Shown here: positions 10,003-52,328 of the stretch, one piece after another | Layout of the letters: every line of letters starts with the position of its first letter | Position numbering within the stretch: the first letter of the stretch is position 1 | Source of the DNA: Candidatus Levybacteria bacterium RIFCSPHIGHO2_02_FULL_40_18 | Lineage (GTDB): Bacteria; Patescibacteriota; Microgenomatia; Levybacterales; GWA1-39-11 | DNA: 64,000 nucleotides | Direction of reading: 5' to 3' | Assembly (NCBI GenBank): GCA_001782235.1 | Contig: MFOC01000007.1 | Location: forward strand, 86,799 to 150,798 | Program-made: the position numbers and the translations under genes | Notes under the pieces: generated by a model | Seen by the model: only the letters and a program-made list of their open reading frames with translations | What the model was told of the DNA's origin: nothing | Databases searched by the model: none

Positions 10003-10123
10003 TAATAAGATATTAGTTGTTAGAAATTAGAAAATGGTTATGGAAATTAGATGTTGGAAATTGGTTTTGGTTCAACTATTTTCCATTTCCCACTTTCTAT
10101 TACTATTTTCTATTCTCTAGTGG
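10003..10123. repeat. palindromic purine-word/pyrimidine-word intergenic element (family copy 1) between ruvA and ruvB
   Basis: Left arm TAGAAATTAGAAAATGGTTATGGAAATTAG..., right arm ...CTATTTTCCATTTCCCACTTTCTATTACTATTTTCTATTCTC. Confidence 0.6.
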
Positions 10124-11964: not shown

Positions 11965-12261
11965 AAGTCAACCCCAAAAATTATCATGCAGACTATTATC
12001 GCAACTAGTGACTAGACACTAGCTACTAGAATTTCTTACGGCCTAAAACCTTCGCCAATTGGAGCGGAGTGCATGAGAAATGAACGAGCGTAGAGGGGGA
12101 CCCCTCACGAACTTGATGAGGAGGGGGAATGGTATCCCCCGCTAGTGAGTGAAATTTCGAAAGCACGAGTACCACTGGCGAGAGCTTTTGGTTCTTTTGT
12201 CGGCACAAAAGAATAAGAGATAAATTGACACTAAAGTATGCTATTGTATAATACTGTATAA

Positions 12262-13359
12262 ATGGAAAGACCGATACTTACGATAGCTCAGGCAGCAAAA
12301 TTATTGCAAGTTGATCCGAATACTATTTATCGCTGGGCCAGAGCGGGTAAATTTCCGGCGTCAAAGATCGGAAAAGAGTGGCGAGTACTTCGCTCTGACG
12401 TTATCAAGTTTGTAGAAAGTAAAAAATCGCGAGATCAGTTCCTGACAGAAAATCAAGAGGCTGAGCTTATTACAGCCTTAGTAGGAAGACGCGAAATTCC
12501 ATTAAAGTTCGAATATCTAGGAGAAGGGGCAGATAAATATGTTGCCATATCAGCACCAGAAATTGGGGGAGGTTCTGAAACAGAAATAATTTCAAACTAC
12601 AAAGGCCGTTTTTCAGATTTTTTAAAGAGTAAAAAATTTAACTTAGTGGACATTGGTTCAGGAGACGGGAAAAAAGCAGCGTTTGTTATTTCTCATGTTG
12701 CTAAAACCGTTTCCTCATATTCAGGGCTTGATATTTCAAAGCGGATGCTTGATCTTGCAGGGCAAACGATGCAGATTTCACACCCCGACTTAATGTATGA
12801 GAGATTCATTGAGGATTTTGAACATGGTAGTATTTCTAATGCTACCTATTATCTCAATCGGAGATATCAGAATAATAATTTAATTCTATTCTTAGGTAAT
12901 ACTATTGGAAATGTCTCCGATGCGCATCGTATTCTCATTAATCTTAGAGACGGAATGAGCGATCAGGATCTTTTATTGGTTGGGTTAGCATTCTATAACC
13001 CTCGAAATATTCCGCTTTCGACATATAACAGGAAGGTTGTCATCGATATGTTTTGGACTATTCCTGAAAAAATAGGCATAGAACGGGGAGATGCAAAAAT
13101 ATCGTGGATTTATAATGAGCATTTAAGGCAGGTAGAGTGCCAGCTTGAATTTGTACGCGGTTGGAGCAAGATTTTCGGGGGAAATCTGATTCGGTTTGGT
13201 AAAGGACAAAAGATAAGACTCGCCATCTCAAGAAGATTTACTAAAGATAATATTTTTGAACTTTTTGCCAAAGCTGGTTTTAAAATTGAGATCTTTGTTC
13301 ATGATAAAGATAATGCTTTAGTTTTATGCCGACCTCATGACTGGGAGAAAAGAATCTAA
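12262..13359 (+). CDS. fusion: N-terminal excisionase-type HTH + EgtD-like (Methyltransf_33) SAM-dependent histidine-type N-methyltransferase domain
   Basis: HTH: ILTIAQAAKLLQVDPNTIYRWARAGKFPASKIGKEWRV. Methyltransferase motif I LVDIGSGDGKK. EgtD-family signatures FLGNTIGNVSD...LLLVGLAFYNP and C-terminal IEIFVHDKDNALVLCRP. Confidence 0.6.
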   Translation: MERPILTIAQAAKLLQVDPNTIYRWARAGKFPASKIGKEWRVLRSDVIKFVESKKSRDQFLTENQEAELITALVGRREIPLKFEYLGEGADKYVAISAPEIGGGSETEIISNYKGRFSDFLKSKKFNLVDIGSGDGKKAAFVISHVAKTVSSYSGLDISKRMLDLAGQTMQISHPDLMYERFIEDFEHGSISNATYYLNRRYQNNNLILFLGNTIGNVSDAHRILINLRDGMSDQDLLLVGLAFYNPRNIPLSTYNRKVVIDMFWTIPEKIGIERGDAKISWIYNEHLRQVECQLEFVRGWSKIFGGNLIRFGKGQKIRLAISRRFTKDNIFELFAKAGFKIEIFVHDKDNALVLCRPHDWEKRI

Positions 13360-13988
13360 TCTGTTAGTTCGGCGAGGGAGTGGATTGTTTTTATCTTAGG
13401 ATCTGATTCGTCTGATTTCCTATTGATCCAAATAACGTCTACGAATTTTTGAAGAACCTCTACAACATCGTGTTTGTTATCTATGAACGTTGCCTCGCGA
13501 GGCAACAGTTCTATTGCCTCATCCGAAAGTTTTCTTTTGTGTATAAAAATATATTCGGGAGAAAAGTAGTCTCGTAATTCTGCCGCGTCAAGCTTTCTAT
13601 TTTGCAAATCGCGATTTCCCTGAGAAAAAATTCCAAGAATTTTTTCTCCTTTTAGTTTTTCCAGAACTTCCCGAGCCTCAGGGTAGAGTGAATTTTTATA
13701 TATATCGGTATCCTCCCAAAAAACCCGATCAAGAGGCGCCACATCTTTTCCGAATCTATCTGAAAGGTAGGCTGTTATCCCACGCGGATCAAAGTCGGTT
13801 CTTTCTGAAAGTTTCGAATAATAATCCGCATTTGCACTAATTAATTCTTCTTCAGAAATCCCCAAGATTTTTACAAATTTTGTGCGAATTAGCTTGCCGA
13901 ATTTTTCAGGATCAAAAATGACGCCATCTATGTCAAACAAAATTAACCCCGTTACAAGTTCGTTCCTAGAAGCGTAGGAGCTATCCAT
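13356..13988 (-). CDS. HAD-superfamily hydrolase
   Basis: Motif I LILFDIDGVIFD (DxD), later Ser/Thr and Lys/Asp motifs. Confidence 0.65.
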   Translation of the reverse strand: MDSSYASRNELVTGLILFDIDGVIFDPEKFGKLIRTKFVKILGISEEELISANADYYSKLSERTDFDPRGITAYLSDRFGKDVAPLDRVFWEDTDIYKNSLYPEAREVLEKLKGEKILGIFSQGNRDLQNRKLDAAELRDYFSPEYIFIHKRKLSDEAIELLPREATFIDNKHDVVEVLQKFVDVIWINRKSDESDPKIKTIHSLAELTD

Positions 13989-14124
13989 GGCTATATACTA
14001 TTAAAATATATTACAAACAATAAGCATATTTGTAACGGGGTTAAATTATGCATCCGAATTCATTATACTATAAGGGGAGAAGATTGCTTTAAGACGGCAA
14101 ATTATTTATAATAAACACTATAAG

Positions 14125-25049: not shown

Positions 25050-25170
25050 AATTTATTTAATTCAAAACTCAAAAGTCAAAAGTTAAAAATTAAAGTTAAA
25101 ATTTAAAAGTGTTTTTAATACTTTTTACTTTTGAATTGCAATTTTGAATTTTGCATTTTGACTTTTAACT

Positions 25171-25845
25171 TTACAATATTACATTCTTAATATCATTCGA
25201 ATCAAAATCCAAAGTAATAAACTCCTGATTGAATAGTTCATAGTAAAGCTTTATAAGCTCATTAGTTGAAAGTGGTCGAGCAGAGAGTCCCATTCTCTCA
25301 ACTTGCGTAGTAACATTGTTTCTTTTTGAAATAAGCGCTGATTTTACCCTCTCATTTAATGCCAGGTTTTTTTTGTCCGTTGTTTTCGCTTGTGCAGCAG
25401 AGGCTACCCCAAGCTCCAGTTGAGAAAACGGGATTACAATATAAATCTTTTTGTCTAAAAGTCCCTCACCCTTTATCAGATCTTTTATAAAATCTCTATA
25501 TAATGTTAATTGTTCCTTGACCTTAGGGTTTTGGATTCCTGCTATTTTATCCTCGATTAGTTTTATGTAACTGACAAGATCTACGCGCCGTGAGACAATC
25601 AATATTTGAATAGATGAAGAGAGAGAATTAAGAAGAGACATGTAGCCATAGATTCTTGCGTTTTGTTCATCTTGTGAGAGAAGGAAAAAATTAACGGACG
25701 AAACTTCCATAATCATACAAGCATTGCCGCCTTTTAAGAAGACAATATCGTCCTGGATGTCAACAATCTCAGTAAAATCTTGCGTGCTTGAGTGAATCTT
25801 TGACTTAGCCATAATCGATATAGAAATTGGTTGTAGGATTTCCAT
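25171..25845 (-). CDS. VirB4 N-terminal-domain protein (separate ORF)
   Basis: LKGGNACMIMEVSSVNFFLLSQDEQNARIYGYMSLLNSL..IQILIVSRRVD aligns with the VirB4 N-terminal region (LEDGSIMSIARIDGVAFELEE..NARCRAFNTLLRNIAD.HVSIYAHLVRH). It is out of frame with the downstream ATPase ORF. Confidence 0.5.
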   Translation of the reverse strand: MEILQPISISIMAKSKIHSSTQDFTEIVDIQDDIVFLKGGNACMIMEVSSVNFFLLSQDEQNARIYGYMSLLNSLSSSIQILIVSRRVDLVSYIKLIEDKIAGIQNPKVKEQLTLYRDFIKDLIKGEGLLDKKIYIVIPFSQLELGVASAAQAKTTDKKNLALNERVKSALISKRNNVTTQVERMGLSARPLSTNELIKLYYELFNQEFITLDFDSNDIKNVIL

Positions 25846-25880
25846 TACTAATTTCCATTTTCCAATAACTATTTTCTAGT

Positions 25881-32260: not shown

Positions 32261-32659
32261 TTATTTGAATTCAGGGAGGGTGAGGATCTTGAGATTTCTT
32301 AGGTCTCCAAGTCCAAGAGCCTGAAGCACAACATTTATAATGACAAAAGAAAGAGCTATTATAATAAGACCTATTACTGCGGCAATTATATGATTTCTTG
32401 CATCTGCAACTTTTTGTTTGTCTCCGCCTGATGTGATCCACTGAAATGCCCCAATGACTATAAAAAGAAGTGCCGCCAAAAAGGCTATAACTATTATAAA
32501 GGCAACCAAAAACCCTACCACTTGGCCAATGGTTGTTTCAGGAGGAATAACAGTTGCGCCCGCGGGAGTTTTGACTCCGGCATCTATCGCGGCAAAAGCA
32601 GGTGCGGCAAGTGAGGAATAAGAAATTAGAGCGAAGGCACCTGATAATATCTTTCTCAT
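32261..32659 (-). CDS. T4SS pilin-like protein (paralog 2, with signal peptide)
   Basis: Signal peptide ...AAPAFAA, then ...GAFQWITSGGDKQKVADARNHIIAAVIGLIII. Confidence 0.55.
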   Translation of the reverse strand: MRKILSGAFALISYSSLAAPAFAAIDAGVKTPAGATVIPPETTIGQVVGFLVAFIIVIAFLAALLFIVIGAFQWITSGGDKQKVADARNHIIAAVIGLIIIALSFVIINVVLQALGLGDLRNLKILTLPEFK

Positions 32660-32698
32660 AAATTAATTAGAGCATGTTTCAAACCCTTTGTCAATAGT

Positions 32699-33034
32699 CT
32701 ATGGATTAACAACTGTTTTAACACCAAACGCGCCTGCTACGAGATTTACAAAGACAAGCGCCAATGACATAACTATTAATCCAAATATCGCATAGATAAC
32801 TATTCTTCTTGCTTTATCCCATTTTTGCTTGTCCCCGGACGCTTGTAGCCAATAAAAACCCCCATAAACAATATAGAATAGAGAAAGAAAAATTCCAATA
32901 ATTAGCGCTAGTTGAATGAAAAAAGATGCAATATTGCCTATTGTAAATTGAGGTCCGGTAGGAATACCGGGAGGCGCCTCAATATCAACTTGGCCTCCGC
33001 CTGAACCCGGTACTTTTAATGATAAATATCTCAT
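32699..33034 (-). CDS. T4SS pilin-like protein (paralog 3)
   Basis: ...YGGFYWLQASGDKQKWDKARRIVIYAIFGLIVM. Confidence 0.55.
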   Translation of the reverse strand: MRYLSLKVPGSGGGQVDIEAPPGIPTGPQFTIGNIASFFIQLALIIGIFLSLFYIVYGGFYWLQASGDKQKWDKARRIVIYAIFGLIVMSLALVFVNLVAGAFGVKTVVNP

Positions 33035-33171
33035 ATTAGAAATTGGTTATTAATAATTAGAAAATAGTTCAGAAATTAGAAATTAGAAATTGGTTCTTGA
33101 TTTTTAACTATTTTCTATTCTCTATTTTCCATTACCATTTTCCATTCTCCTATAACTATTTTCTAATATAT
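33035..33171. repeat. palindromic intergenic element (family copy 2)
   Basis: TAGAAATTGGTTCTTGATTTTTAACTATTTTCTATTCTCTATTTTCCATTACCATTTTCC is nearly the exact reverse complement of copy 3. Confidence 0.65.
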
Positions 33172-34569
33172 TTAGCGGGTGATTCCTGGTATTTTCAAAA
33201 TATCAACTCCTATTATCTCAAGTATAACAATTGAGAAAATGATGAACAACAATCCTACGACTGCAGAAGTTATCGTTTCCCTTGCTCCTGCGATTTTCTC
33301 TTTATCCCCTCCTGACGTTATTAATATATAGCCTGAGTAGATTATTATTATGATTGCCCCAAATCCCGCAATTGTTAATATAAATCTAAAAATTGTCTCA
33401 ATGAATCCTTTTGGAGTGACATTAATTGGTCCGATTGCCGAATTTATGGTTTTACAGTCACCAGGGCGAAGATTAATATCACCTTCCCCACTTCCACAAG
33501 GCAGTATTGCACCGGGAGCAACCTTATTTAACGCCGCAAGGTCTTTAAGAAAGGTACGATACTCCTCGCCTTTGGGATCTTGTCTATAATGCAGGGGATC
33601 ATCACATGTTCCACCTTCCTTATTATTAGCTGATGTGATTATGCATGTTGCTTCATAATATGTAAATCCACCTTTACAACCAGGTGGGTTTGGAACTGAA
33701 GGAAATACGCTGACGCTTACCCAAGCCCATGCGGTTGGGTTATCATCATCAACCTGTTCTCTTACAGTTATTGTGTATTTTCCAGCGGAAAGTTTTTGAA
33801 ACTCAATTCTTTTTCCACTCTCATTCTCGCTCGTAAAGGCAAGACATCCTCCCTGTCGGTAACCATTGTTTCCAATCATCAAAATTTGGTAGTTATTCCT
33901 TCTCCACCCTCCAGGCCTGAACGAATTATTAATGGCATTGCCTAGATTTACGGTGATTGTTGCGCCAGGTCTCAAGTCTGTACCAGGATAGATTGATAGA
34001 GAAGGATAAGTTCTATGAACATAAAAACCTCCTATTTTAATTGGTTTGTAATAGGCATCTTTTATTAGGGTTCCGATACTCAGCGCATAGACATTCCCAC
34101 CATGAAAATAGACAGTGCCACCACAGTCAGTTTTGACCTTGCTACTTCCTGCTCCGCATACCCCCTTAACAGTTACATTGCCTTTGCTATCTGATTTTAG
34201 CCCTAAGATAAAATTGTCCAATATATCTGGGCCGTTTATCCCAGGTACAAATCCTTCTTCTCTAAGACATGCGCTGTCTCCCGTACAAATTATATAACCA
34301 GACTTATCACTCTCAAGTCCATAAAAAGTAATATCAATTATTTTATCTGCTTCATCAAGACATTCAGGTCGCTCGCTTGTTGAAAATTCAACGTCTGTTC
34401 CCTCAAGAATTGTCTCAGTGGGAGAAGGACTTGTCTGACATGGATCAAGCTGGGCAAAAGCAGGAGTTTTGAAAAGTAAAAATATCGCGGCGAAGAGGAA
34501 GGACGCGGTTAATATAAGAAGCTTCTTCATATATTTATGATAGGCAGAAGGAGTAGGGGAAGTCAACAT
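33172..34569 (-). CDS. extended pilin: secreted Cys-rich ectodomain (about 380 aa) fused to C-terminal pilin-like domain (paralog 4)
   Basis: Signal peptide, more than 20 Cys in the ectodomain, C-terminal ...YSGYILITSGGDKEKIAGARETITSAVVGLLFII. Flanked by near-identical inverted repeats. Confidence 0.6.
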   Translation of the reverse strand: MLTSPTPSAYHKYMKKLLILTASFLFAAIFLLFKTPAFAQLDPCQTSPSPTETILEGTDVEFSTSERPECLDEADKIIDITFYGLESDKSGYIICTGDSACLREEGFVPGINGPDILDNFILGLKSDSKGNVTVKGVCGAGSSKVKTDCGGTVYFHGGNVYALSIGTLIKDAYYKPIKIGGFYVHRTYPSLSIYPGTDLRPGATITVNLGNAINNSFRPGGWRRNNYQILMIGNNGYRQGGCLAFTSENESGKRIEFQKLSAGKYTITVREQVDDDNPTAWAWVSVSVFPSVPNPPGCKGGFTYYEATCIITSANNKEGGTCDDPLHYRQDPKGEEYRTFLKDLAALNKVAPGAILPCGSGEGDINLRPGDCKTINSAIGPINVTPKGFIETIFRFILTIAGFGAIIIIIYSGYILITSGGDKEKIAGARETITSAVVGLLFIIFSIVILEIIGVDILKIPGITR

Positions 34570-34572
34570 CCG

Positions 34573-34723
34573 CTAGAAATTAGTTATTAATAATTAGAAA
34601 ATAGTTGTTGGAAAATGGAAATTAGTAATGGAAAATAGAGAATAGAAAATAGTTAAAAATCAAGAACCAATTTCTAGTTTCTAATTTCCGAACCATTCTC
34701 TAATTTCCCATAACTACTTTCTG
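34573..34723. repeat. palindromic intergenic element (family copy 3)
   Basis: GGAAAATGGAAATTAGTAATGGAAAATAGAGAATAGAAAATAGTTAAAAATCAAGAACCAATTTCTA, inverted relative to copy 2. Confidence 0.65.
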
Positions 34724-36040
34724 CTACTCTGTGAGTTTGTAGCCGCGGCCTTTTATGGTTTGGATAGAATTAGGATTATTGGGATCATCTTCTATTTTCT
34801 TTCGTAAGCGATAAATTATTTGATCAAGGGCTTGGTCTGTTACACCTTCTTGAGTTTTAGTGTCTTTCCAGACATTTGAGATTATTTCGTCTTTTTCACA
34901 TACCCGCCCTTGGTTTTGAAGCAAAAATCTAAGTAGTCTAAACTCCTGCGGAGAAAGAATTTCGGTTAAGTTTTGATCTCCCTTGAGGATCTCATTGCGC
35001 TCCTGATCATAAGACAATCTTGGGGAGGTGGGGGTTAAAGTTTTTAGGTATGTGTCGAACAATGGAATAACGAGTTTGCCATCACGGGTTAGTCCTGCCT
35101 TTTCTAAAAATTCATTTTTATTATTTGCTTTTATATCCTTCTTTTCTTCCGGTGTCAGGAAATTCCATATCTCTGAAAGCGCGCTCCTAACCTGTGGTTT
35201 TAACAGTAAGACTTCGGATAATCGGCTGTTGGCTGTTGGCTGTTGGCTATTGGCCAGGGTAGCTTCATAACAAATTCGTGCGAGTTTTCCGTGGCCGCCG
35301 GTCAGTTTTATAATTTCACTTTTAATTCTTTCATCAGCCGACTTTCCCGAAATTTCTTCAAGATGCTTGAATCGAAATTCTAGTCCCACCTTATCATAAA
35401 GCGAAAGATATACTATGTTACCGATTAAAAACTCAGAGAATTCGGCATAAATAGAAGATTCTAAAACCTCCTCGATTGGACGCGTTATGCCAAAAACAGC
35501 AGTAAATCTATACTTTGCGCGGTTTCGAAGAATCTTTAAGTTAAGAAAAAAGGAAGAGTCAATATTTTGTACATATTCCTCAAAACGGTCCAGCAGAAAA
35601 ACAATATTTAATTCGCATTCATTTGCAAGATAGTCTATAGCTTTTTTTAAGTTTTGAGAAAAGACCATCTCATCGGAGAATTTAAGAGCGTCTGAGAGAA
35701 ATTTATTAACAACCGACTCTTCTTCTTTTAATCTTCTTTCGCCAAAAGAGGAAGCAATAGAGATTAAGATAAATTTTAATATGTCGGAAAGGGACCTTTT
35801 GGCTACTTCTGAGAAGTCCATATAAACAAAATGATAAGAAGATTCCCTTTTACCTAAGTGGAGCTCCCGGACCGTTCTATTATAAGGAAGTAAACGAAGC
35901 GCGTTGCTTTTCCCTGTGCCCGGTAGCCCAATTACCTGACAGGATTTGCCCGATGATACGAATTCGATAATTTTGGCGATCTCAGCCTTTCTTGTTTCTT
36001 TTGGGTATAGGCTCTCAAAATGAGAAGGCTCGATAATCAT
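34724..36040 (-). CDS. AAA-type ATPase fused to C-terminal OmpR/PhoB-type winged-helix DNA-binding domain (candidate island regulator)
   Basis: Walker A GLPGTGKSNAL near the N-terminus. The C-terminal LSPQEFRLLRFLLQNQGRVCEKDEIISNVW...ALDQIIYRLRKKIEDDPNNPNSIQTIKGRGYKL matches trans_reg_C. Confidence 0.6.
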   Translation of the reverse strand: MIIEPSHFESLYPKETRKAEIAKIIEFVSSGKSCQVIGLPGTGKSNALRLLPYNRTVRELHLGKRESSYHFVYMDFSEVAKRSLSDILKFILISIASSFGERRLKEEESVVNKFLSDALKFSDEMVFSQNLKKAIDYLANECELNIVFLLDRFEEYVQNIDSSFFLNLKILRNRAKYRFTAVFGITRPIEEVLESSIYAEFSEFLIGNIVYLSLYDKVGLEFRFKHLEEISGKSADERIKSEIIKLTGGHGKLARICYEATLANSQQPTANSRLSEVLLLKPQVRSALSEIWNFLTPEEKKDIKANNKNEFLEKAGLTRDGKLVIPLFDTYLKTLTPTSPRLSYDQERNEILKGDQNLTEILSPQEFRLLRFLLQNQGRVCEKDEIISNVWKDTKTQEGVTDQALDQIIYRLRKKIEDDPNNPNSIQTIKGRGYKLTE

Positions 36041-36103
36041 AGAAAATAGAAAATAGTTATTAGAAAATAGACAATGGTTCGGAAATTAGAAAATAGAAAT
36101 TGG
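36041..36103. repeat. purine-word half-element (family copy 4, left arm)
   Basis: AGAAAATAGAAAATAGTTATTAGAAAATAGACAATGGTTCGGAAATTAGAAAATAGAAATTGG. Confidence 0.55.
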
Positions 36104-36532
36104 TTAACGATCATGGTAATTCTTCCAAGATTTCTTAAGATTCGTTAGTTGCTTACAGGAGATTATATATAAATTTATGACTTCGTTGCAAAGTTTAGGA
36201 TCGACGTATTTACTATAAACATCTATGCATACTGATAAATGATTTATCATTTCGTAACATTCACCTATCGTATCATCTATATATTTACTCCATGCTTTTT
36301 TCTGATATCTTTTGGCAAACCCCTCAGCAAGTATGGCTGGTCCTGCTTTGCAACTACGTCTCATTTGATCAACAAGATCAAACTTCTCTTCCTTCGGTAG
36401 ATTAGTAATTATTTCCTTCAATACTGTGACCATTGCCTTATATAAATTTTGGTACACCTCAAGATCTTGAAAAGTTCTGATTGGCTTTTTCTTTCTATTT
36501 TCCATTTTCAAATATCTATTACCATTTTCCAC
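36104..36532 (-). CDS. four-helix-bundle protein (23S rRNA intervening-sequence protein family)
   Basis: FQDLEVYQNLYKAMVTVLKEIITNLPKEEKFDLVDQMRRSCKAGPAILAEGFAKR matches the TIGR02436-type pattern. The first about 12 codons are read from repeat-element sequence, so the true start is probably internal. Confidence 0.55.
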   Translation of the reverse strand: MENGNRYLKMENRKKKPIRTFQDLEVYQNLYKAMVTVLKEIITNLPKEEKFDLVDQMRRSCKAGPAILAEGFAKRYQKKAWSKYIDDTIGECYEMINHLSVCIDVYSKYVDPKLCNEVINLYIISCKQLTNLKKSWKNYHDR

Positions 36533-36560
36533 TTTCCTACAACCATTTACAATTATCAGA
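36485..36560. repeat. pyrimidine-word half-element (family copy 5, right arm)
   Basis: TTTCTTTCTATTTTCCATTTTCAAATATCTATTACCATTTTCCACTTTCC, the inverted partner of copy 4 across the four-helix-bundle gene. Confidence 0.55.
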
Positions 36561-36627
36561 CTTCTGTTACGCTGCTGTTAGGTTAATATCAAGTATCCTA
36601 AGCTATATTCTTGTAAACTTGCGCCAT

Positions 36628-39600
36628 ATGACACACGAAAATTTGACACCAAGAGACGCTATCAACTATTCTATAAATAGAATGCCAGAACCCATAATAG
36701 ATGGCCTACGAGGCGGCTCTGCCTCAAGTCGTTCAGTTCCGGGATATGATTCTTCCAGAACCGTAGATGAAATACAGGCTCAAAGAATTGTTGATGAGGT
36801 CAAATCCAAATCTTATTCTGCTAAAAGCAAATGGAGCAAAGAACAGGTTGATAAAAATGCCGGGCTTTCTGATGAGGAACGTCTTAGTCAAGCAGCTAAA
36901 ATTTTAAATCGGGAGCTTTCTCAAGAACAAAAAGACGCAGTCATTGGAACACATAAAATTAGCGAAGGCGAGATGGGAAAAGATGATAAACCTGTCAAAA
37001 TAGGAGAATACACACAGGCTCAAATTAAAAGAAAAGCCAATTCATTGAAAAAAGCAGGGTTTAATCTTGAAGAAAGGCGTGCTTTGCTTGAAAGCGGCAT
37101 TGCCGGCCTTCCTCTGGAAAGATTCGCCGCTATTAATCCTGACACATATACAGATCCTGAGATTAAAAATAAAACGGGGTTTGTAAAAACTATGGGGACA
37201 GAAGGAAACGCTGATTCGGAATTCTTACAGAATCAACTCTTTGAACTCAACTCTAGAATCGATAGGGGAACTGGGGACCTCAGAGAAGCAAGAACATTTC
37301 GGGATCAAATACAAGATCTTTTGACAGAGGCTCGTAGGCAAGAAACTGCAGAATTAGAAGAGAGAAGGCGTGCCGCGGAGGCAAGGTCTCCTACAGAGAG
37401 AAGGGGAGGCTATGAGCATCTTGAACGAACAGAGGAACAATTAAGAGCTATGACTCCTGAGGAACGTCAGAATTGGAGGGATCAAATTAAGCAGGCAATC
37501 AGAGAAGCGCCAGCCATCGATGCCTCTCGCTTCCCTGAACAACTTTTAGTAATAGCATTGAGCGATAAGGAACTTCGTGAGATGCTTCTCAATAGAATTC
37601 TTTTTAAACCCTATGAAGATACAACTGAGGCAAATATGTATAGGCTTAACTTTTACGCTGAGGGGAATCGCGACGATATTCTTGGGAAATTAGCCGAAAT
37701 AACTGATGGGAAATATGATTATTTTAAAAAACTTCAGACCGCGGTAGAGTTATTTCATGCAATGAATGTATCAACTGTCTCAGGAGACATAGAGCATTTA
37801 CTTGACTATGCTCGGCGAATAAATTTTGAACATTTTTCCTTAATGCAAGAGCTTCCAGGTCTCCCAGATGTCATGAGGCTTTATGAAGAGAAATACCAGG
37901 AGATTTTAGCAAGAGAAGGTAGAATAGCAACAGAGGGTTACAAAACATTAAAAAAAGAAGTAGAGAGAGCCTTCAATGAGATGAATGAAAAAGGGATTGT
38001 CAGAAGCGAATATGAAACGGAAAGGACTGGTGACAGGCCATGGATAATGGAAGACTGGGAAAGAACTAGGGCTATTAATGCGGGAAGAGCATTTTTTAAT
38101 ATTACCATTCGCGCAGCAGAACATATAGCAAATGGACAACTTGAGTCTGGAGGTAGAAAATGGACAGGATTTCCTCAGGAAGACGCTGTAAGACTTATGA
38201 ACTGGCCAAAATGGCTCGTTGAGAGATTTGAGGTTGCTATCCCTCGTGGAGGGCGTGCGTTTCTTGACAGAACAAGTAGAAACTACTTTGAATTTCTTGT
38301 TGAGCGCAAGCGAAAACTGGGGATAAATAGAATAGCCCAGCTTGGAGGAATGAGGGTTGATGAGCTTGAACTTGGGGCAATGTTTGGCGTAAGCGGAGTT
38401 TATAGCTCCTGGAGACTTGAGGCAATGCTATTTCCAAAGATCAAACTTGCCAATGGCCAGACACTTAGAGACTGGCTTGATGAGGAAGTCGGATATATAT
38501 CGCCGGACGGCAAGACAATTATGGCAAGAGGGAAAGACAGGCAGAGTCACTGGGTTGATAAAGGTATCTCCTTGCAGAAGCGGGCTGACTGGTTAGACCA
38601 GATTCAAGGAGATATTAAAAGCCAAGACCAGTTGCTCAAGTTTTTATCTCCTGTCATAGAAAATACAGACATTGCACTTGGTGTATTACTTAAGCAAGGT
38701 CTTACCTCAGGAGAGGTAGGATATAAGGTGAGAGAGAGAATTTGGCAAAGAGTTGCTGAAACAAATCTGCCTCTGATGATAAATTATCTTTCAAGCATTA
38801 GTGAAATGGATGATCCAATAGAGGTTGGTATAGGAGAACCTTTAAAAGGCGCACCAAAAGCTCAAAATCGCATAAGGCCAGATGACTGGACGTGCGGCGA
38901 AGAAGGGAGCGAGGAACGAAAGGAGGGAGATAGGAAGTGGAATGAGTTTAAAGAAAATGTTTTACTGCATCATGCCTGGGAAGTTAAACGCGCGGCGGGA
39001 GCAAATGTGTCAGAGGAGTCGCCTGTCCGTGATTATATTCGTGATCACCAAGATTTGATAGATAAAATTAAGCAAGAGGGGAGAGCACTTGCACCGCAAC
39101 TTGCAGATATTGTTTTTCCTTACGTTCCTTTTATGAATGACGTGCCATTTGAACTTATCGATTATGCAGGCCCGGGAGAAACATTCTACAAGAGGAGATT
39201 AGGCTCTGACCTTCCGAGCTTTAGCGCTGCAGAGCGCGCGTTTACAACCATTGTTAATAATCCGGGTGGGATAGGAGCAGAGAATGCACTTAAGGCATTT
39301 GATGAGATTGTAAAAGGAATTGAGAGTCCACAAGGGACACCGGATGCGCAGGAAAGGGTCTATCCAATGCTTTCTGCCTGGGGAGAATTTGTCCTGGCGC
39401 GTCCCGGGCATAGACAGATGATAATAAAGGCAGTTACAGAGATACTAAGAAAACCCACTTCCATTGCTCAGGAGTTTGCAGGAATGGATGCGGAATCTCT
39501 CGATGAAAATCAAATGCTGGCTGTTTTAGGAAATGCTACGAAAGCTGGAATTATAAGCCATGACCTTTACAATGAGATGAAGAAAAAAAAGCATCTGGGC

Positions 39601-39702
39601 ATTCTTTTTATCTTGTGGGCGCTTTTCCGTGATATTATTATAATGGCTCCGGCAATCGCAGCTTGGGAGATGGGTAAAGATACGATGAAGAAAGCGGCAT
39701 GA
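36628..39702 (+). CDS. giant hypothetical protein (about 1024 aa) with C-terminal TM anchor, island-specific
   Basis: The ORF track begins at 36481 inside the repeat element. The first ATG is 36628 (MTHENLTPRD). C-terminal hydrophobic HLGILFILWALFRDIIIMAPAIAAW. No known catalytic motif. Confidence 0.55.
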   Translation: MTHENLTPRDAINYSINRMPEPIIDGLRGGSASSRSVPGYDSSRTVDEIQAQRIVDEVKSKSYSAKSKWSKEQVDKNAGLSDEERLSQAAKILNRELSQEQKDAVIGTHKISEGEMGKDDKPVKIGEYTQAQIKRKANSLKKAGFNLEERRALLESGIAGLPLERFAAINPDTYTDPEIKNKTGFVKTMGTEGNADSEFLQNQLFELNSRIDRGTGDLREARTFRDQIQDLLTEARRQETAELEERRRAAEARSPTERRGGYEHLERTEEQLRAMTPEERQNWRDQIKQAIREAPAIDASRFPEQLLVIALSDKELREMLLNRILFKPYEDTTEANMYRLNFYAEGNRDDILGKLAEITDGKYDYFKKLQTAVELFHAMNVSTVSGDIEHLLDYARRINFEHFSLMQELPGLPDVMRLYEEKYQEILAREGRIATEGYKTLKKEVERAFNEMNEKGIVRSEYETERTGDRPWIMEDWERTRAINAGRAFFNITIRAAEHIANGQLESGGRKWTGFPQEDAVRLMNWPKWLVERFEVAIPRGGRAFLDRTSRNYFEFLVERKRKLGINRIAQLGGMRVDELELGAMFGVSGVYSSWRLEAMLFPKIKLANGQTLRDWLDEEVGYISPDGKTIMARGKDRQSHWVDKGISLQKRADWLDQIQGDIKSQDQLLKFLSPVIENTDIALGVLLKQGLTSGEVGYKVRERIWQRVAETNLPLMINYLSSISEMDDPIEVGIGEPLKGAPKAQNRIRPDDWTCGEEGSEERKEGDRKWNEFKENVLLHHAWEVKRAAGANVSEESPVRDYIRDHQDLIDKIKQEGRALAPQLADIVFPYVPFMNDVPFELIDYAGPGETFYKRRLGSDLPSFSAAERAFTTIVNNPGGIGAENALKAFDEIVKGIESPQGTPDAQERVYPMLSAWGEFVLARPGHRQMIIKAVTEILRKPTSIAQEFAGMDAESLDENQMLAVLGNATKAGIISHDLYNEMKKKKHLGILFILWALFRDIIIMAPAIAAWEMGKDTMKKAA

Positions 39703-39721
39703 AGCTTTTCTTGCTGTTCTT

Positions 39722-41335
39722 TTATCTAAAGACCCGTCTGAGAACAGCAGTAAGCCCTTTCTCACCCGCCAGTGGCATAGCGCCTTTTAGAGCTGCAAAA
39801 CCACCTCCAGCAGTTCCCCTAACAGTTCCTGTTATGACACCCAGTCCTCCTGCAACCGATCTTCCTATTGCTGCGGTGTACTTAAATTCGGGCGCTTTTA
39901 GAGCGTCCCTGACAATATTGACAACTTCAGGGGTCAAGAGAATTATTCCAAGACCAATTATTGACGCAAAGTTTGCTGGATCCAAAAAGTCTCCGGTAAG
40001 TGGTGGAACAAAAGGCGTTGTGCTTGGATCTTGTTTAGTAAAGCCACTCATAAAAGCCTTTCCAAAAAGAAACATGGCAATTGTTACCGGAAATACCGAG
40101 AGGTTTGATAATATTGATCTTATCCACGTTCCAAAACCAGATCTTCCCGGGATTAGCCCCGAGGCAATATAAAAGGGGGCAAGGACTACATTTATGAGGA
40201 CGTAGATATAGGATTTAATAAGTTGAAACCAAAGACGCAGGAGCGCTGCAAAAATTGCGATTATTATAATAAGGTACGTAACTGCACCTGCAAAAAATCC
40301 CAGAATTCTATTTCCAGACAGTTCATTCACCCCAAAACCTATTGCAAAACCTGCTACCGCCCCAGGGATCCCTCCGAAACTGCCAGCAGCCTTAGCTACT
40401 TTACCTAGCACTGAAGGTAGTCCACCTCCTGCGCCGCCCAACACGGTTCCAAAGATTCCGCCGACAATTCCTGCTAAAACATTCCCAAGAGTACCATCAA
40501 ATATAGATCGCACAATCCCTGAGATACTTTTAGCAACGCCTTCTGCAATTCCAGATATCCCCATGTCCTTTCCGGTGAGCGGGGCGCTGCCAAATCCTCC
40601 GGCTGCCGCAAAGGGGTTACTTGCCAACATACTTGTTGGGTCAATTCCTTGCTCGGCGAATATTGTCATAATTAAGTAGATTGAGACATACATAAGGTCC
40701 ACTAAAAACCCTGCGATTGCATAAGAGAAGGTAATCAAAACTAGAGCAATCACAATTTTTGGAATTTGATTTTGCATTGTCATAACGGTTCTGGGGTCAA
40801 TTTTTATTCTAAACATTATTCCAAGACCCACAATTATAAAAACAATTACAAAGAGAAGATAAGTCAAATTTCTAAAAGCCTGCCAGAGCTTAAGAGTGGG
40901 CGTAAGGGAATTAAAACCTAGGCTTCCCTCAGGTCCTTGCGCATATGTTTTTTTAACTATGCCAAAATTTGAAGCAACATAGCTTCCGTAATCATGAGTT
41001 GAGACAGGAATGTAAAAAGTTGCCGACATAAGATTTCCCAACATTCCAAGCGCTCCGCCTCCTCCCTCAACAAATCCTATTTTTCCAGTATTTGGATCTA
41101 TTCCAAGACACTTATTACCAGGATTGGCGGGATCAATTCCTGAGAGTTGACAAGAAGTTGCGGCGATAATTTCAATAAAGACGCTTTGGGTGTATGTATG
41201 GAAATTCTGCGGGACGTCCGGATTTGTGTTGAGGTAATTTGCATTAGGGTTTGGGAATTGAGCATTCGCGTTTGGTACAAAAATAAGGAACAATGAATAA
41301 AGAATAACGAATAAAGAGAGCAGTTTAAATATCAT
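39722..41335 (-). CDS. polytopic Gly-rich membrane protein, VirB6/TrbL-like candidate
   Basis: Signal/TM N-terminus, more than 6 TM helices, and Gly-rich loops (GGGGLPSVLGKVAKAAGSFGGIPGAVAGFAIGFG) as in TrbL/VirB6-type pore components. Assigned by topology only. Confidence 0.4.
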   Translation of the reverse strand: MIFKLLSLFVILYSLFLIFVPNANAQFPNPNANYLNTNPDVPQNFHTYTQSVFIEIIAATSCQLSGIDPANPGNKCLGIDPNTGKIGFVEGGGGALGMLGNLMSATFYIPVSTHDYGSYVASNFGIVKKTYAQGPEGSLGFNSLTPTLKLWQAFRNLTYLLFVIVFIIVGLGIMFRIKIDPRTVMTMQNQIPKIVIALVLITFSYAIAGFLVDLMYVSIYLIMTIFAEQGIDPTSMLASNPFAAAGGFGSAPLTGKDMGISGIAEGVAKSISGIVRSIFDGTLGNVLAGIVGGIFGTVLGGAGGGLPSVLGKVAKAAGSFGGIPGAVAGFAIGFGVNELSGNRILGFFAGAVTYLIIIIAIFAALLRLWFQLIKSYIYVLINVVLAPFYIASGLIPGRSGFGTWIRSILSNLSVFPVTIAMFLFGKAFMSGFTKQDPSTTPFVPPLTGDFLDPANFASIIGLGIILLTPEVVNIVRDALKAPEFKYTAAIGRSVAGGLGVITGTVRGTAGGGFAALKGAMPLAGEKGLTAVLRRVFR

Positions 41336-41344
41336 AATTGATTT

Positions 41345-41495
41345 TAGTATTTAGAAATTGGTTTTTGGACAATAGAAATTAGTAATAGAAAATAGAGAAT
41401 AGAAAATAGAAACAAATACTATTCTCCAAGTTCAAATTTCCATAACCATTTTCCAATTTCTTACAACTATTTTCTAATAAGTCTATTTTTAGTAT
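41345..41495. repeat. palindromic intergenic element (family copy 6)
   Basis: AGAAATTAGTAATAGAAAATAGAGAATAGAAAATAG is near-identical to the copy 3 core. Right arm ...CCATAACCATTTTCCAATTTCTTACAACTATTTTCTAAT. Confidence 0.6.
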
Positions 41496-41719
41496 GGGCT
41501 AAAAATATCGTAAATGTCAAATAGTTGGCTTGACCCCGCTAATCTTACCGTTCGCCTTTTTCCCGCCGATATTTTTCGGTCGGGATCCCGCACGAATGTA
41601 ATTCGTCGGGACAGTACTATTCGTACACGGCTCACGGAGCGATTTTAGAGGTGTCTTCTGTCGCTACGCTTCTTGACAATTGGTGTGGTTGGGGTTATTA
41701 TTATCAAAATCTTCATTAA

Positions 41720-42334
41720 ATGAAAAAAGTTGTCTTGGGATTACTGCTCCTGGCCCTCTTTTATTTAAGTACTCCTTCAAAAACACTTGCCCAAACTAAG
41801 CCTATACTTTCTCCTTCGCCCACGGAAGCCCTCATGTCAGAAGATAAACAAATGGAGAAAGAAAAAGAAGCCACGCAAAGTTCGCAGCCTGAGATAGATG
41901 AGTACCCGTTGCCCTATCCTGGAATCTTACCTGACAATCCGTTGCATTTTCTAAAGGCTCTCCGAGACAGGATAATTTTAATGCTAATGTCAGATCCTGT
42001 AAAAGAAGCGGAGTTTAATCTTTTAACATCGGACAAAAGAATTTATGCGGCACAACTTTTAGCAGACAAGGGAAAAGGACAACTTTCAATTTCAACTCTT
42101 TCAAAAAGCAATAACTATTTCCATAATGCAGTATCAAGCGCCGGGGAAGCCAAAAAGATGGGGAAAGATATTGATACAGTTTTACATAATATGAAAAAGT
42201 CTATTGTTAAACACCAACTGGTGCTGCCTATGATGGAGAATGTGCTCTCAAAAGACTTTGCAAGCCAGCTTCGGGCAGAGGGTGCGAGAATGGTAGAATT
42301 TGAAAGATCCGTAGATAGCCTTATCCTGCAGTAA
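41720..42334 (+). CDS. hypothetical secreted protein
   Basis: Signal peptide MKKVVLGLLLLALFYLSTPSKTLAQ. A consensus promoter TTGACA-17-TATTAT lies about 35 nt upstream. Confidence 0.5.
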   Translation: MKKVVLGLLLLALFYLSTPSKTLAQTKPILSPSPTEALMSEDKQMEKEKEATQSSQPEIDEYPLPYPGILPDNPLHFLKALRDRIILMLMSDPVKEAEFNLLTSDKRIYAAQLLADKGKGQLSISTLSKSNNYFHNAVSSAGEAKKMGKDIDTVLHNMKKSIVKHQLVLPMMENVLSKDFASQLRAEGARMVEFERSVDSLILQ

Positions 42335-42483
42335 CAATCTAATTCCCTAGTTAGATCATTTTTTTTACACACAAAAACAAAGTGCCCAACTAATTTTTTC
42401 GTCCCATCCGCCAACCGGCGGACTATTACCGCAAAACGAGGCTAAAACATCGATTGCCATAGTTTGATATACAACTTGATAGT

Positions 42484-42535
42484 TGACACGGCTGATATAG
42501 TGTTCTACTATTTTAGTTGACACTATATCTAGTAG
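42484..42535 (+). promoter_or_regulatory. nrdR-nrdJ promoter (TTGACA-17-TACTAT) with NrdR-box-like palindromes
   Basis: ACACTATATCTAGTAG (42520-42535) matches the NrdR box consensus acaCwAtATaTwGtgt. A half-box ...GATATAGTGT lies at 42494-42503. The repeat TAGTTGACAC appears twice. Confidence 0.45.
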
Positions 42536-42565
42536 TTTGCACCTTGAACAACCAGCCCAATTAAG

Positions 42566-42700
42566 CAGAAAATAGTTAATAGATAATAGAAAATAGTAAT
42601 GGAAGTTGGAAAATAGAAAATAGATTAAATACCAATTTCTAATATCTAATTTCCATAACTAATATCTAATTTCTAACAACTAATTTCTGTAATTTAGAAT
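42566..42700. repeat. palindromic intergenic element (family copy 7) forming the nrdR 5' leader
   Basis: GAAAATAGTTAATAGATAATAGAAAATAGTAATGGAAGTTGGAAAATAGAAAATAG ... CCAATTTCTAATATCTAATTTCCATAACTAATATCTAATTTCTAACAACTAATTTC. Confidence 0.6.
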
Positions 42701-45689: not shown

Positions 45690-45840
45690 TAGTTTCAAAT
45701 AAGAGTATATATTTGGTAATCGCCGTGAAAGTCGGCGGAACTGCCGGTACTGTAATATCCAGAAAACAATATATACTTTCATCCCCGAGCAGGGTTAAGC
45801 GAAGAAGAATTCCTCTCGGGTTATCGAGAGGTTTTTTTGT
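45690..45840 (+). promoter_or_regulatory. cobalamin-riboswitch-like leader plus intrinsic terminator upstream of the PduO adenosyltransferase gene
   Basis: GGTAATCGCCGTGAAAGTCGGCGGAACTGCCGGTACTGTAAT resembles the AdoCbl aptamer core (GGGAAGCCGGTGAAAATCCGGCGCGGTCCCGCCACTGTAA, from memory). It is followed by the hairpin CCTCTCGGGTTATCGAGAGG plus T7. Confidence 0.45.
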
Positions 45841-48461: not shown

Positions 48462-48499
48462 CTTACAAACGCTGCTTCGTGCGAAGCCGCGTTTGACGC

Positions 48500-48854
48500 G
48501 GTGGAGATGGGGGGCTTTGAGCCCCCGTCCAAAAAAGCATCTATAAAAACATCTACAAGCTTATTCAATTATTTATTGTCATCATGCAAACTCCAATTGA
48601 AAGGATTGAACATGACTAAGATTTAAATTGTTCGAACAAAATCTAAATCGGAACTTTGTCTATATCCAAACTTTGTTTATGCCCATATCTGATCGTTTGG
48701 AAAAATCTAGATATGAACACCAGTTTAAGCTACTGCGTAGCTGTAGGCCGGACTAACATTTCTGTTAGCATTTATTTTTGATACATTTTTACGATTAGTA
48801 TCATTATCGGCTTGCAGTTTTTAAAGAGCAATTCTGTCGATGCAATGCATCCCC
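48500..48854 (-). ncRNA. ssrA: tmRNA (ssrA)
   Basis: Minus-strand 5' GGGGATG... pairs with 3' ...CATCTCC-A-CC (tRNA-like acceptor, one G·U). T-arm GGGGG-CTCAAAG-CCCCC. Internal tag ORF with resume codon GCT: A-NRNVSPAYSYAVA-stop(TAA). Located directly downstream of smpB on the same strand. Confidence 0.75.
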
Positions 48855-49315: not shown

Positions 49316-49525
49316 TCCATTATATCATCGGGTCCTGCCGCTTCGTGATTTTCGCACGTTGAAAGTGACGCTCAGCTTCCTTTAGTTGAAATATTCCATA
49401 TCGTTATCTCGTTCTTCGCTATGTGAACGCAAGTATATGTAAGTTTTATGTAGTTCGAAAATATATTTAAACTTGCATTCGAATCACTTTCAAGTGAAAA
49501 ATCACTTCGCGTCACCCAATGGAGT

Positions 49526-51581: not shown

Positions 51582-52217
51582 TTACTTTAGTGGCTTTCTT
51601 CCTATCATCTCGGCAATAATTTGAACAATTCTGGCCGGTTCCGGCGCGCGGTCAAACTCAAAGTTTGCTTGAGTCGCCGCGGTTTGTACTAACACGTCCC
51701 CATAATTAAATACTGATCTTACAGCTCCGACTTGTGAGTAAGAAACGTCCTCGATAAGATTAATTTTTGTTTCACTGGCGTGCTTAAAAAGAATACCTGA
51801 AACATCAAGATCAATGATTCTTTTGTTAGTTACAAGACCTACATTAAAATACCAAATAGTAAACTCAACCAAAATGAATCCGGCCACAACAAGATAATAA
51901 AAAAGGACCGAAACTACTTGAGTTTGTATGGCAATCTGGAAAAAGGGAGAAAACAAATCGTTGAAAAGAAAAAGGAGCGGAGGAATAAAGATTAATATCA
52001 GAGCGGTAAGAATCCAAGGGACATTGGTTATGAGATCTCGTCTTACGAGAAGCATTATTTCTTCATCTCCCTCCTGATTTTCAAACACTACATTATCGGG
52101 ATTGATTCCAAGCGAGGAATAAAAGTGGACGGATTTTTTGTGGGAAGGTTCTGGTGTACCTTGCGGTATCCGTTCTGAAATAACGAATTCACCACTAAGA
52201 CCATTTTCCCCTGGCAT
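51582..52217 (-). CDS. bacterial PH-domain (bPH_2/YdbT-like) membrane protein
   Basis: Two TM helices, then ...VGLVTNKRIIDLDVSGILFKH... matches the bPH_2 signature. Confidence 0.6.
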   Translation of the reverse strand: MPGENGLSGEFVISERIPQGTPEPSHKKSVHFYSSLGINPDNVVFENQEGDEEIMLLVRRDLITNVPWILTALILIFIPPLLFLFNDLFSPFFQIAIQTQVVSVLFYYLVVAGFILVEFTIWYFNVGLVTNKRIIDLDVSGILFKHASETKINLIEDVSYSQVGAVRSVFNYGDVLVQTAATQANFEFDRAPEPARIVQIIAEMIGRKPLK

Positions 52218-52328
52218 AATGAGATTATTATATCAGAAATAGAATAGCTAAATGGCTATAATGGTTAAAATAGTTCTGGCTCGAAAAACTATTCTAGCTT
52301 ATTCTAACTATTCAACTATTTGATCTTT

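Follow-up and report, generated by a model that had tools for sequence, protein, structure and literature searches.

We analyzed a stretch of 64,000 nucleotides (hereafter, the window) from Candidatus Levybacteria bacterium RIFCSPHIGHO2_02_FULL_40_18 (contig MFOC01000007.1, positions 86,799 to 150,798), which contains a family of palindromic intergenic elements. Each element has an arm of short purine-rich words that is followed by an arm of complementary, pyrimidine-rich words. Six copies in the window are gene-less, at 65-150 bp, and a seventh is full-length (36041-36560), with arms that enclose a gene for a four-helix-bundle (4HB) protein (Table 1). The copies lie within the ruvA-ruvB operon, in front of nrdR, and in a cluster of type IV secretion and pilin genes, where the full-length copy precedes a gene for a nucleoside triphosphatase with a winged helix-turn-helix domain (NTPase-wHTH). 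A preliminary description of this DNA had reported a dispersed family with imperfect inverted symmetry, based on the sequence of the window. We found that the family is genuine and that it extends well beyond the window. The preliminary description had not recognized the link to the enclosed gene, the presence or absence of copies between relatives, or how widely the family is distributed.

Table 1. The repeat family and associated features in the window, with matches to a hidden Markov model (HMM) of the arm.
Feature	Position	Strand	Location or content	Arm HMM matches
c1, gene-less copy	10008..10121	none	ruvA stop codon (10124-10126) to ruvB ATG (9999); word order RRRRYYY	10008-10052 (+, E 8e-9); 10121-10086 (-, E 0.002)
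Second word family	25058..25172	none	heptads AAAAGTY / RACTTTT; before a VirB4-like gene (ATG 25049)	
Partial gene-less copy	25816..25880	none	one long arm and a short opposite arm; between the stop codon of a PrgI-like gene (25881) and a probable ATG (25813)	25878-25838 (-, E 4e-9)
c2, gene-less copy	33037..33165	none	large pilin stop codon (33172) to small pilin ATG (33034)	33037-33090 (+); 33165-33118 (-)
c3, gene-less copy	34574..34723	none	NTPase-wHTH stop codon (34724) to the -35 box of the large pilin gene	34595-34642 (+, E 3e-10); 34722-34676 (-)
Full-length element, pyrimidine-word arm	36041..36103	-	4HB stop codon to NTPase-wHTH ATG (36040)	36047-36094
Full-length element, 4HB gene (cargo)	36104..36505	-	133 amino acids; PF05635 match (Pfam)	
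Full-length element, purine-word arm	36485..36560	-	contains the 4HB ATG (36505)	36548-36504
Flanking direct repeat of c41, left	41341..41350		ATTTTAGTAT	
c41, gene-less copy	41352..41484	none	promoter of a VirB6-like gene to its ATG (41335)	41352-41399 (+); 41476-41429 (-)
Flanking direct repeat of c41, right	41485-41495		ATTTTTAGTAT	
c42, gene-less copy	42566..42689	none	NrdR-box promoter to nrdR ATG (42707)	42567-42614 (+); 42688-42642 (-)

The repeat is built from the 7-nt words RAAAWTRG and CYAWTTTY, which occur 103 times in the window, compared to 30.9 ± 5.3 times in shuffled sequences. The words follow a strict 7-nt period: the self-match is 0.58 at a lag of 7 and about 0.30 at other lags. 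Clusters of three or more words are found at 10023-10131, 25823-25876, 33039-33163, 34576-34707, 36042-36103, 36495-36529, 41354-41490, and 42568-42687, and nowhere else in the window. All seven of the intervals that were originally noted carry the words. So does a partial copy that was overlooked (25816-25880), which is 98% complementary to 34595-34634 over 40 nt. We also built an HMM of the arm that was trained solely on 125 arms from other genomes, and is independent of the window. It identified 12 arms in the window (E ≤ 1e-5), all of which are within the copies in Table 1 and face inward. In other words, a profile of foreign arms finds exactly the noted sites, along with the partial copy.

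The copies are 60-98% identical to each other, and their termini, TAGAAAWTRGTTRTT ... AACYAWTTTCTA, are conserved within the window and across taxa. For example, 33038-33167 is 88% complementary to 34593-34722 over 130 nt, and the right arm of c3 and the full-length element's pyrimidine arm share 90% identity over 58 nt. A near-identical core had been noticed at 34620 and 41370, and just one base differs (34620/41375). Might these resemblances have arisen by chance in AT-rich, low-complexity intergenic DNA? The elements have just 17-27% G+C and are made of short, similar words, as this would predict. However, a three-word pattern matched the window 9 times and had no matches in 100 dinucleotide-preserving shuffles, foreign arms find the same sites, and the words are not found in the window's other intergenic regions. 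Also, identity between copies reaches 88-98%. The chance explanation is already refuted, and we give it virtually no weight.

The preliminary description counted at least seven copies. There are indeed seven word sites among those it listed, but 36041-36103 and 36485-36560 belong to a single element, as its two arms. In the sense of the enclosed gene, this element consists of a purine arm, the 4HB gene, and a pyrimidine arm. Directly upstream of the purine arm is a promoter-like site, CTAACA-18-GATAAT (36581-36552). The open reading frame (ORF) matches PF05635 (23S_rRNA_IVP) with E = 2.4e-15 and 57.1 bits, as compared to a gathering cut-off of 33.8, and a profile search of PDB matched 2GSC (E = 1.7e-5). 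The AlphaFold2 model of the protein has four helices (pLDDT 90.7). When we compared the model to known structures with Foldseek, the best matches were 2GSC and 2RLD, which belong to the S23 family, and it also matched Avd from a diversity-generating retroelement (DGR; 8UB7_C, TM 0.71). Judging from its profile matches and its predicted structure, the ORF at 36104-36505 encodes a four-helix-bundle protein of the PF05635 family. (PF05635 is abundant in Bacteroidota and cyanobacteria as well.) The dN/dS ratio of the gene is 0.04-0.06, with saturated synonymous sites, so the gene is functional and under purifying selection.

We scored 551 candidates that shared words with the 4HB protein, and 545 of these were relatives at E ≤ 1e-10. 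The best 120 of the listed relatives are about 65-85% identical to it. Many relatives are on contigs of around 1 kb, which is expected for repeats. To see what surrounds these genes, we considered 80 metagenomic loci that were retrieved by the 4HB protein alone, and only then examined their flanks; 75 loci had enough flanking sequence. In 54 of the 75 loci, two or more purine words were present in the 120 nt before the gene, and two or more pyrimidine words in the 140 nt after it. On average, the 75 loci had 3.25 purine words and 0.16 pyrimidine words upstream, and 0.28 purine words and 2.91 pyrimidine words downstream. In most related loci, the ATG of the 4HB gene is embedded in the purine word GAAAATGGAAAAT (which encodes Met-Glu-Asn), and the stop codon marks the beginning of the pyrimidine arm. 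Directly after this arm comes the ATG of the next gene, usually 49-72 nt past the stop codon. These downstream genes are diverse, and include an 81-amino-acid helix-turn-helix gene, NTPase-wHTH, rplK, pilC/pilT-like genes, gltX, ligA, and others. In full-length copies, host promoters are found immediately upstream of the purine arm.

We searched for the element in other collections as well. The 4HB protein had no match in phage collections, and in plasmid collections, it had only distant homologs (~30% identity) from cyanobacteria. Five of six of these cyanobacterial plasmid homologs have the same design with other heptads (for example, repeats of GCAGGGA that end at the ATG, with repeats of TCCCTGC past the stop codon); in the sixth, both sides have purine heptads. 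In an Oscillatoria nigro-viridis plasmid (locus L199), arrays of GGGAGAG/TGGGAGA of about 200 nt, at 1260-1450 and 1910-2040, flank a four-helix-bundle gene. Both of these arrays are purine-rich on the same strand, unlike the inverted arrangement elsewhere. More broadly, different "dialects" of the words accompany the gene: TAG/TGG, TCG, and CAG, and GC-rich heptads in the cyanobacteria.

Searching for the DNA pattern instead of the protein, we found at least 110 stretches in the species representatives of GTDB. An RRRR-YYYY arrangement that spans 100-140 nt and shares the termini seen in the window is present in Saccharibacteria, Levy-, Curtiss-, Roizman-, Komeili-, Lipton-, and Falkowbacteria, and in Parcubacteria. 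So the word pattern is widespread in other genomes from the candidate phyla radiation (CPR). It is also present in low-GC metagenome-assembled genomes (MAGs) that are filed as Gammaproteobacteria, Methylomirabilis, or TA06; these labels may reflect mis-binned or mislabeled CPR contigs. The matches in Bacteroidales and Methanosarcina are one-sided, simple tandem arrays and are probably unrelated low-complexity sequence.

In 50 loci of other genomes, we identified 64 further gene-less copies. Among these gene-less copies from elsewhere, ORF starts within 40 nt were present on just one side for 41 of 57 copies, and on both sides for none of them. The start codons are typically 0-15 nt from the terminus of the element, in many taxa. 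Across many organisms, the genes behind the copies include rplK, gltX, ligA, holA-like genes, pil genes, ruvB, and nrdR. These results support the position directly in front of genes that had been noticed in the window. As a dense example, a low-GC MAG that is filed as an uncultured Gammaproteobacterium (L043) has five copies of this family (family 1) within 8 kb (1535-6988). An ATG follows four of the five copies within a few nucleotides, and three of the genes begin with MLKRGF, MTKKGF, or MTKKG, which resemble the leaders of type IV pilins. (The taxonomic label of this MAG may be wrong.)

The window also contains a copy of a second family, with different heptads, at 25058-25172. It has 51-nt arms that are 75% complementary, a fold z score of -6.3, and a self-match of 0.69 at a lag of 7. 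These words also occur at the site upstream of nrdR in a relative (9902-9992 in L195, described below). We did not find a gene-carrying form of the second family in the loci that we examined, which had few instances of it. Another possible palindrome, at 52234-52322, is a degenerate purine-then-pyrimidine sequence (AATAG / CTATT) upstream of the promoter of the gene at 51582-52217. Its fold z score is -3.2 and the arm HMM does not detect it.

Comparisons to relatives show that the copies are insertions. Using orthologs of NrdR, we identified three syntenic loci (L195-L197; 90, 88, and 85% identity), and using orthologs of RuvB, we identified three more (L204-L206). The c2 site is empty in L195 (the pilin genes are separated by stop, 3 nt, start), in L196, and in L197. 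The c41 site is empty in the same three relatives. The ~10-bp repeat that flanks c41 spans the promoter's -10 region, and at the empty site, L196 has a single copy of this sequence (ATTTTAGTATGGGC). The full-length element is present in L195, where its pyrimidine arm is only 23 nt. In L196 and L197, the 4HB gene and its arms are absent from the same site; these two loci retain the NTPase-wHTH gene, but its upstream DNA is ordinary AT-rich sequence, and there are no words in about 20 kb. The site between ruvA and ruvB is filled in the window and in L204, and it is empty in L205, where the genes overlap (ATGA), and in L206, which has a 24-nt spacer. At the c3 site, L195-L197 have no family-1 words. 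(At this site, 2985-3050 of L196 is a different purine-then-pyrimidine palindrome with GGATG / ATCC words.) Overall, the orthologous sites of c1, c2, c41, and the 4HB element vary in presence and absence, and each is empty in one to three relatives, so the copies are polymorphic between relatives. The nrdR site has family 1 in the window, AAAGTT words in L195, a third AT-rich palindrome in L196, and no element in L197. With different word families at one spot, this looks like repeated turnover.

The host is largely leaderless (for example, the gene starts at 6545, 12262, 14125, and 52329). We looked for a box with at least 5 of 6 matches to TATAAT that ended 5-12 nt before the ATG. Such a box precedes 24 of the 44 genes in the window, as compared to 10.4 ± 2.6 for shuffled upstream regions. 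Just 2 of the 44 genes have a Shine-Dalgarno-like 4-mer. In this setting, both forms of the element occupy the scarce non-coding bases. Some lie between the -10 box and the start codon of a leaderless gene, others separate coupled cistrons, and others immediately precede a promoter.

The pyrimidine arm had been described as always abutting the downstream start codon in the sense of the mRNA. For full copies this is automatic: a palindrome with purines and then pyrimidines reads alike on both strands, so the abutment gives no information about orientation. And it is not true of c3. The true start of the large pilin gene is at 34530, and it has its own promoter, TTGACT-18-TATCAT (34566-34537), followed by 6 nt and the ATG, so c3 precedes a promoter instead of abutting the start codon. 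When we oriented the gene-less copies of the window by their types of arms, three had the same orientation as the adjacent gene and two were opposite, so there is no rule.

We considered whether the copies might act as UP elements or as mobile promoters. In this view, the element's conserved end (..CTAACAAC TAWTTT CTA) would provide an outward -35-like or -10-like box, along with an AT-rich upstream region, and a gene with its start codon 0-15 nt away would be transcribed from it without a leader. The short distance to the start codon in many taxa and the host's use of leaderless starts fit this idea, and there are specific cases as well. The end of c42 forms a hybrid promoter-like site, CTAACA-16-TAGAAT, whose CTAACA is the end of the element and which terminates 6 nt before the ATG of nrdR. 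At c41, a duplicated -10-like sequence (ATACTAAAAT) lies beside the end of the element and 5 nt before the ATG. By reading, we also noticed TAWTTT 5-8 nt before the ATG in several loci. However, there is no consistent pair of -35 and -10 boxes inside the elements, and the spacing from TAWTTT to the ATG falls into two classes (about 5-8 and 10-13 nt). A promoter scan of 32600-36800 found 15 sites, which is no excess over shuffles (12.2 ± 3.3), and we did not find a convincing complete promoter inside any element. The real host promoters are just outside: besides the promoter downstream of c3, the VirB6-like gene has TTGACA-18-CATACT at 41520-41491 (minus strand) and nrdR has TTGACA-17-TACTAT at 42483-42511. 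We consider it unlikely that the family consists of mobile promoters.

Alternatively, the elements might be structured 5'-leader RNAs whose long hairpin is a selected device, such as a thermometer, an attenuator, or a stabilizer. The two-armed copies that we tested fold well (z of -4.2 to -5.6 relative to shuffles, and -30 to -39 kcal/mol). The preliminary description had suggested leader hairpins, and this holds for the location of one copy: c42 lies between a sigma-70/NrdR-box promoter and the ATG of nrdR, so it would be in the 5' untranslated region (UTR). (The near-consensus nrdR-nrdJ promoter, within 42450-42540, overlaps two NrdR-box-like palindromes and is conserved in L195-L197, so nrdR has a long 5' UTR, unlike most genes of the window.) But if the hairpin were selected, then the two arms of a copy should be matched to each other. 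Across 69 gene-less copies, pairing with their own arms gave -33.2 kcal/mol, as compared to -37.9 kcal/mol with foreign arms, and the copy's own arms were better in just 19 cases. Each element has arms of two different types. In full-length copies there is a small advantage in cis (-33.9 vs. -30.4 kcal/mol, P = 0.014), which would favor a selected hairpin. There is no G-U asymmetry between the strands: the sense strand folds better than the antisense strand for 24 of 47 copies from the window and other genomes (P = 0.72), and the window by itself likewise shows no bias. Also, copies may have either orientation with respect to the gene, some are upstream of promoters or behind stop codons, and none match a family in Rfam. 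So the hairpin itself is not optimized, and these results do not support the long hairpin, or a sense-strand RNA hairpin, as the selected feature; rather, the words, their inward orientation, and the terminal ~15 nt are conserved across phyla. We think it very unlikely that these are leader RNA devices.

Our preferred explanation, which we consider somewhat probable, is that the gene-less copies are non-autonomous foldback derivatives, similar to miniature inverted-repeat transposable elements (MITEs), of a PF05635 cassette that resembles the intervening sequences (IVSs) of 23S rRNA and that rides on host transcription. By reading, the loop of c2 and c3 (..TTAAAAATCAAGAACCAATTTC) resembles the end of the ORF and the start of the arm in the full-length element (..CATGATCGTTAACCAATTTC), as expected for the remnant of an internal deletion. 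As we did not find a convincing complete promoter inside the element, we infer that transcription from the preceding host promoter would run through it, and that it would form part of host transcripts. Either orientation would be tolerated: on both strands, the 5' half has TAG or TAA stop codons in all three frames, which are all closed because the period of the words is 7, and the 3' half, as read by eye, seems to lack start signals. The two halves would fold back on each other, which would bring the flanking host sequences together, and by analogy with the stems of 23S IVSs, the foldback would probably be cut by RNase III. Some of the ends may supply an outward -35-like box.

Several of our results weigh against this explanation. 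We tested 20 of the 4HB loci against Rfam and did not find rRNA, or any other RNA gene, nearby. We noticed no transposase or reverse transcriptase in or beside the element, but we did not search systematically for reverse transcriptases. A flanking duplication was seen only at c41 and was not evident at the other copies, and a survey of flanking repeats found no excess over the control, although this is a weak test because the ends of the elements were crudely defined. As the arms of a copy are not better matched to each other and the sense strand is not favored, a functional RNA stem is not positively supported. Finally, the 4HB gene remains next to NTPase-wHTH in the window and in six other loci (L096, L118, L119, L140, L142, and L195), and this synteny includes relatives whose NTPase is only 42-49% identical. 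Together with the strong purifying selection on the 4HB gene, the conserved synteny is as compatible with domestication or a role in regulation as it is with a selfish element. The conservation of the words despite saturated synonymous sites could reflect function instead of repeated insertion.

One such role would be regulation by binding: the word arrays might be binding sites in DNA or RNA, the gene-less copies would be operators of a regulon, and the arms of the 4HB gene would serve for its autoregulation. The 4HB protein itself is the best candidate for the factor, with the neighboring NTPase-wHTH protein as an alternative. This would explain why the words and the termini are conserved and the pairing of the stem is not, and why the dialects of the words travel with the gene, and it is consistent with the synteny and the purifying selection. 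A 7-nt period with 4-8 words per arm would suit a ring-shaped binder or a binder of single strands; relatives of the 4HB protein form pentamers (2GSC and Avd), and its structural relative Avd (the 8UB7 match) binds nucleic acid as part of the DGR's ribonucleoprotein. But a period of 7 bp is awkward for recognizing double-stranded DNA, and in many organisms the copies precede unrelated housekeeping genes. Copies are present or absent between close relatives or are replaced by other word families at the same site, and L196 and L197 have the NTPase-wHTH gene and not the words. On balance, we are doubtful that the copies are operators.

There is also a broader idea, which we offer as speculation and hold to be rather improbable. 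PF05635 genes with arms of heptad words might constitute one class of cassettes, spread across bacteria, that lack promoters and are carried along in host transcripts, and 23S IVSs, the short tandemly repeated repetitive (STRR) heptanucleotide arrays of cyanobacteria, and the foldback repeats of CPR bacteria would be its forms. The protein, which is probably pentameric, would recognize the 7-nt words of its own arms and would control or propagate the cassette and its gene-less copies. Propagation might even proceed through an RNA intermediate, given the kinship with Avd from DGRs and the insertions at positions where the transcription of leaderless genes begins.

More concretely, PF05635 is a large family of unknown function, and the constant arm-gene-arm architecture and its gene-less derivatives provide a testable context for it. 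Intervening sequences of rRNA, heptamer arrays, and CPR repeats may share an origin. In streamlined, leaderless CPR genomes, much of the scarce non-coding DNA in front of genes is recently inserted repeat. This affects gene calling (several start codons in this window were over-extended into repeats), and it also bears on promoter prediction, on breaks in assemblies, and on models for the expression of the type IV secretion and pilin cluster. An insertion can turn a leaderless start into a leader of 130-600 nt without a Shine-Dalgarno sequence, which raises the question of how these genes are translated.

We also noticed other features of the window and its relatives. Between c41 and a DUF5667 gene, there is a non-coding region of about 220 nt (41496-41719) with G+C-rich hairpins and no match in Rfam. 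The entire spacer (41336-41719) has a fold z score of -4.7 and is 384 nt, as compared to 105-124 nt in L195-L197; 41496-41719 may be another insertion or a small RNA. A 40-nt direct repeat, at 2947-2986, 4295-4334, and 4664-4703 (70-93% identical), is directly upstream of small ORFs on the minus strand (3663-3971, 3952-4257, 4336-4665, and 4704-5033), and resembles a duplicated leader or promoter for a small family of genes. A G+C-rich inverted pair of 41 nt, at 1528-1568 and 49326-49366, is 83% complementary across 47.8 kb and is unrelated to the AT-rich family. There is an AdoCbl-II riboswitch at 45704-45777, between the genes for a class II ribonucleotide reductase and a PduO-type adenosyltransferase, and a tmRNA gene at 48499-48854 (minus strand), beside smpB-like synteny. 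In L195, the ribonucleotide reductase gene (10557-14087; 1176 amino acids) contains a LAGLIDADG intein, while the gene in the window (834 amino acids) does not.

We compared the family to known types of repeats. The preliminary description did not consider the elements to be CRISPR arrays or, by sequence, repetitive extragenic palindromic (REP) elements or bacterial interspersed mosaic elements (BIMEs), and we agree. The copies are kilobases apart, separated by genes, and internally inverted, unlike CRISPR arrays, whose repeats are direct and identical with unique spacers of similar length between them, and they are 65-150 nt at 17-27% G+C, whereas REP and BIME units are about 20-40 nt and usually G+C-rich. 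They are not members of a family in Rfam 15: no match reached the gathering score, and at E ≤ 1 there were only far sub-threshold chance matches. Because the palindromes separate co-directional genes, we considered an integron attC array, and we rejected it: the copies are dispersed (as at ruvAB and nrdR) and their arms are arrays of words, and by reading, we noticed no attC-like cores and no integrase, neither of which we searched for specifically. In the searchable literature, which mostly excludes subscription journals, and in Rfam, we did not find any account of elements like these, or any connection of PF05635 to heptamer repeats.

The full-length element has the most in common with the IVSs in the 23S rRNA genes of Leptospira and Coxiella burnetii. 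In Coxiella, the IVS has an S23p ORF between inverted repeats that are cut by RNase III (PMC4990558). As here, a PF05635 gene lies between complementary termini and has no promoter of its own; it is inside a host transcript, as our elements would be, and occurrence is sporadic, which is consistent with horizontal spread. However, the elements in this study lie between protein-coding genes, and neither the window nor the 20 related loci that were tested against Rfam have rRNA at the elements; because they are not in rRNA, we do not classify them as IVSs. Their arms are arrays of 7-nt words that span 50-70 nt, instead of a unique stem of 28 bp; the gene is under strong purifying selection, while the Coxiella ORF is reported to be decaying; and there are many gene-less copies per genome region. 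Hairpin versions of the IVS that lack an ORF do exist (the Salmonella type).

The gene-less copies are similar to MITEs in that they are small (under about 300 bp), non-coding, and multi-copy, with conserved terminal inverted repeats and presence/absence polymorphism. They differ in that they have no transposase-bearing parent: the only longer form with the same ends encodes the 133-amino-acid PF05635 protein and nothing else. The Correia elements or NEMIS of Neisseria and the enterobacterial repetitive intergenic consensus (ERIC) elements are MITEs that are co-transcribed with their neighbors, and the stems of Correia elements are substrates of RNase III. Like the copies in this study, these are inverted-repeat elements of about 100-150 bp that are intergenic, near gene starts, and present or absent between relatives; they also form hairpins in mRNA and may contribute promoter boxes. 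But our copies have no sequence similarity to them, lack a fixed duplication of TA, and have arms that are arrays of 7-nt words, and their longer relative carries a four-helix-bundle gene instead of a transposase. In their architecture, the arms also resemble those of the foldback (FB) elements of Drosophila and the subterminal repeats of CACTA elements, which are eukaryotic, have long inverted arms of short tandem subrepeats, and have a known dependence on transposases. In both cases, each arm has many short and similar subrepeats, the two arms are not identical, and the center is variable or absent. A comparable dependence on a transposase was not found here.

The 4HB protein has the same fold as Avd (8UB7_C, TM 0.71), which we take to be a member of PF05635, but their sequence identity is very low. 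In the searchable literature, PF05635 was cited only in a review of DGRs. Beside the elements, we noticed no reverse transcriptase, template repeat, or variable repeat, although we did not search for these systematically. As for the cyanobacterial STRR heptanucleotide repeats, they were reportedly described by Mazel and colleagues in 1990, and they are said to occur in RNase P RNA (Vioque, in 1997). STRRs are intergenic arrays of 7-nt units, as in this family, and are also reported inside genes for structural RNAs. Accounts of them are of simple tandem repeats that lack both an associated gene and an inverted partner, and their words differ from those of the CPR elements. But on plasmids of Nostoc, Leptolyngbya, and Oscillatoria, STRR-type heptad arrays flank PF05635 genes, with purine-rich heptads before the ATG and pyrimidine-rich heptads after the stop codon.

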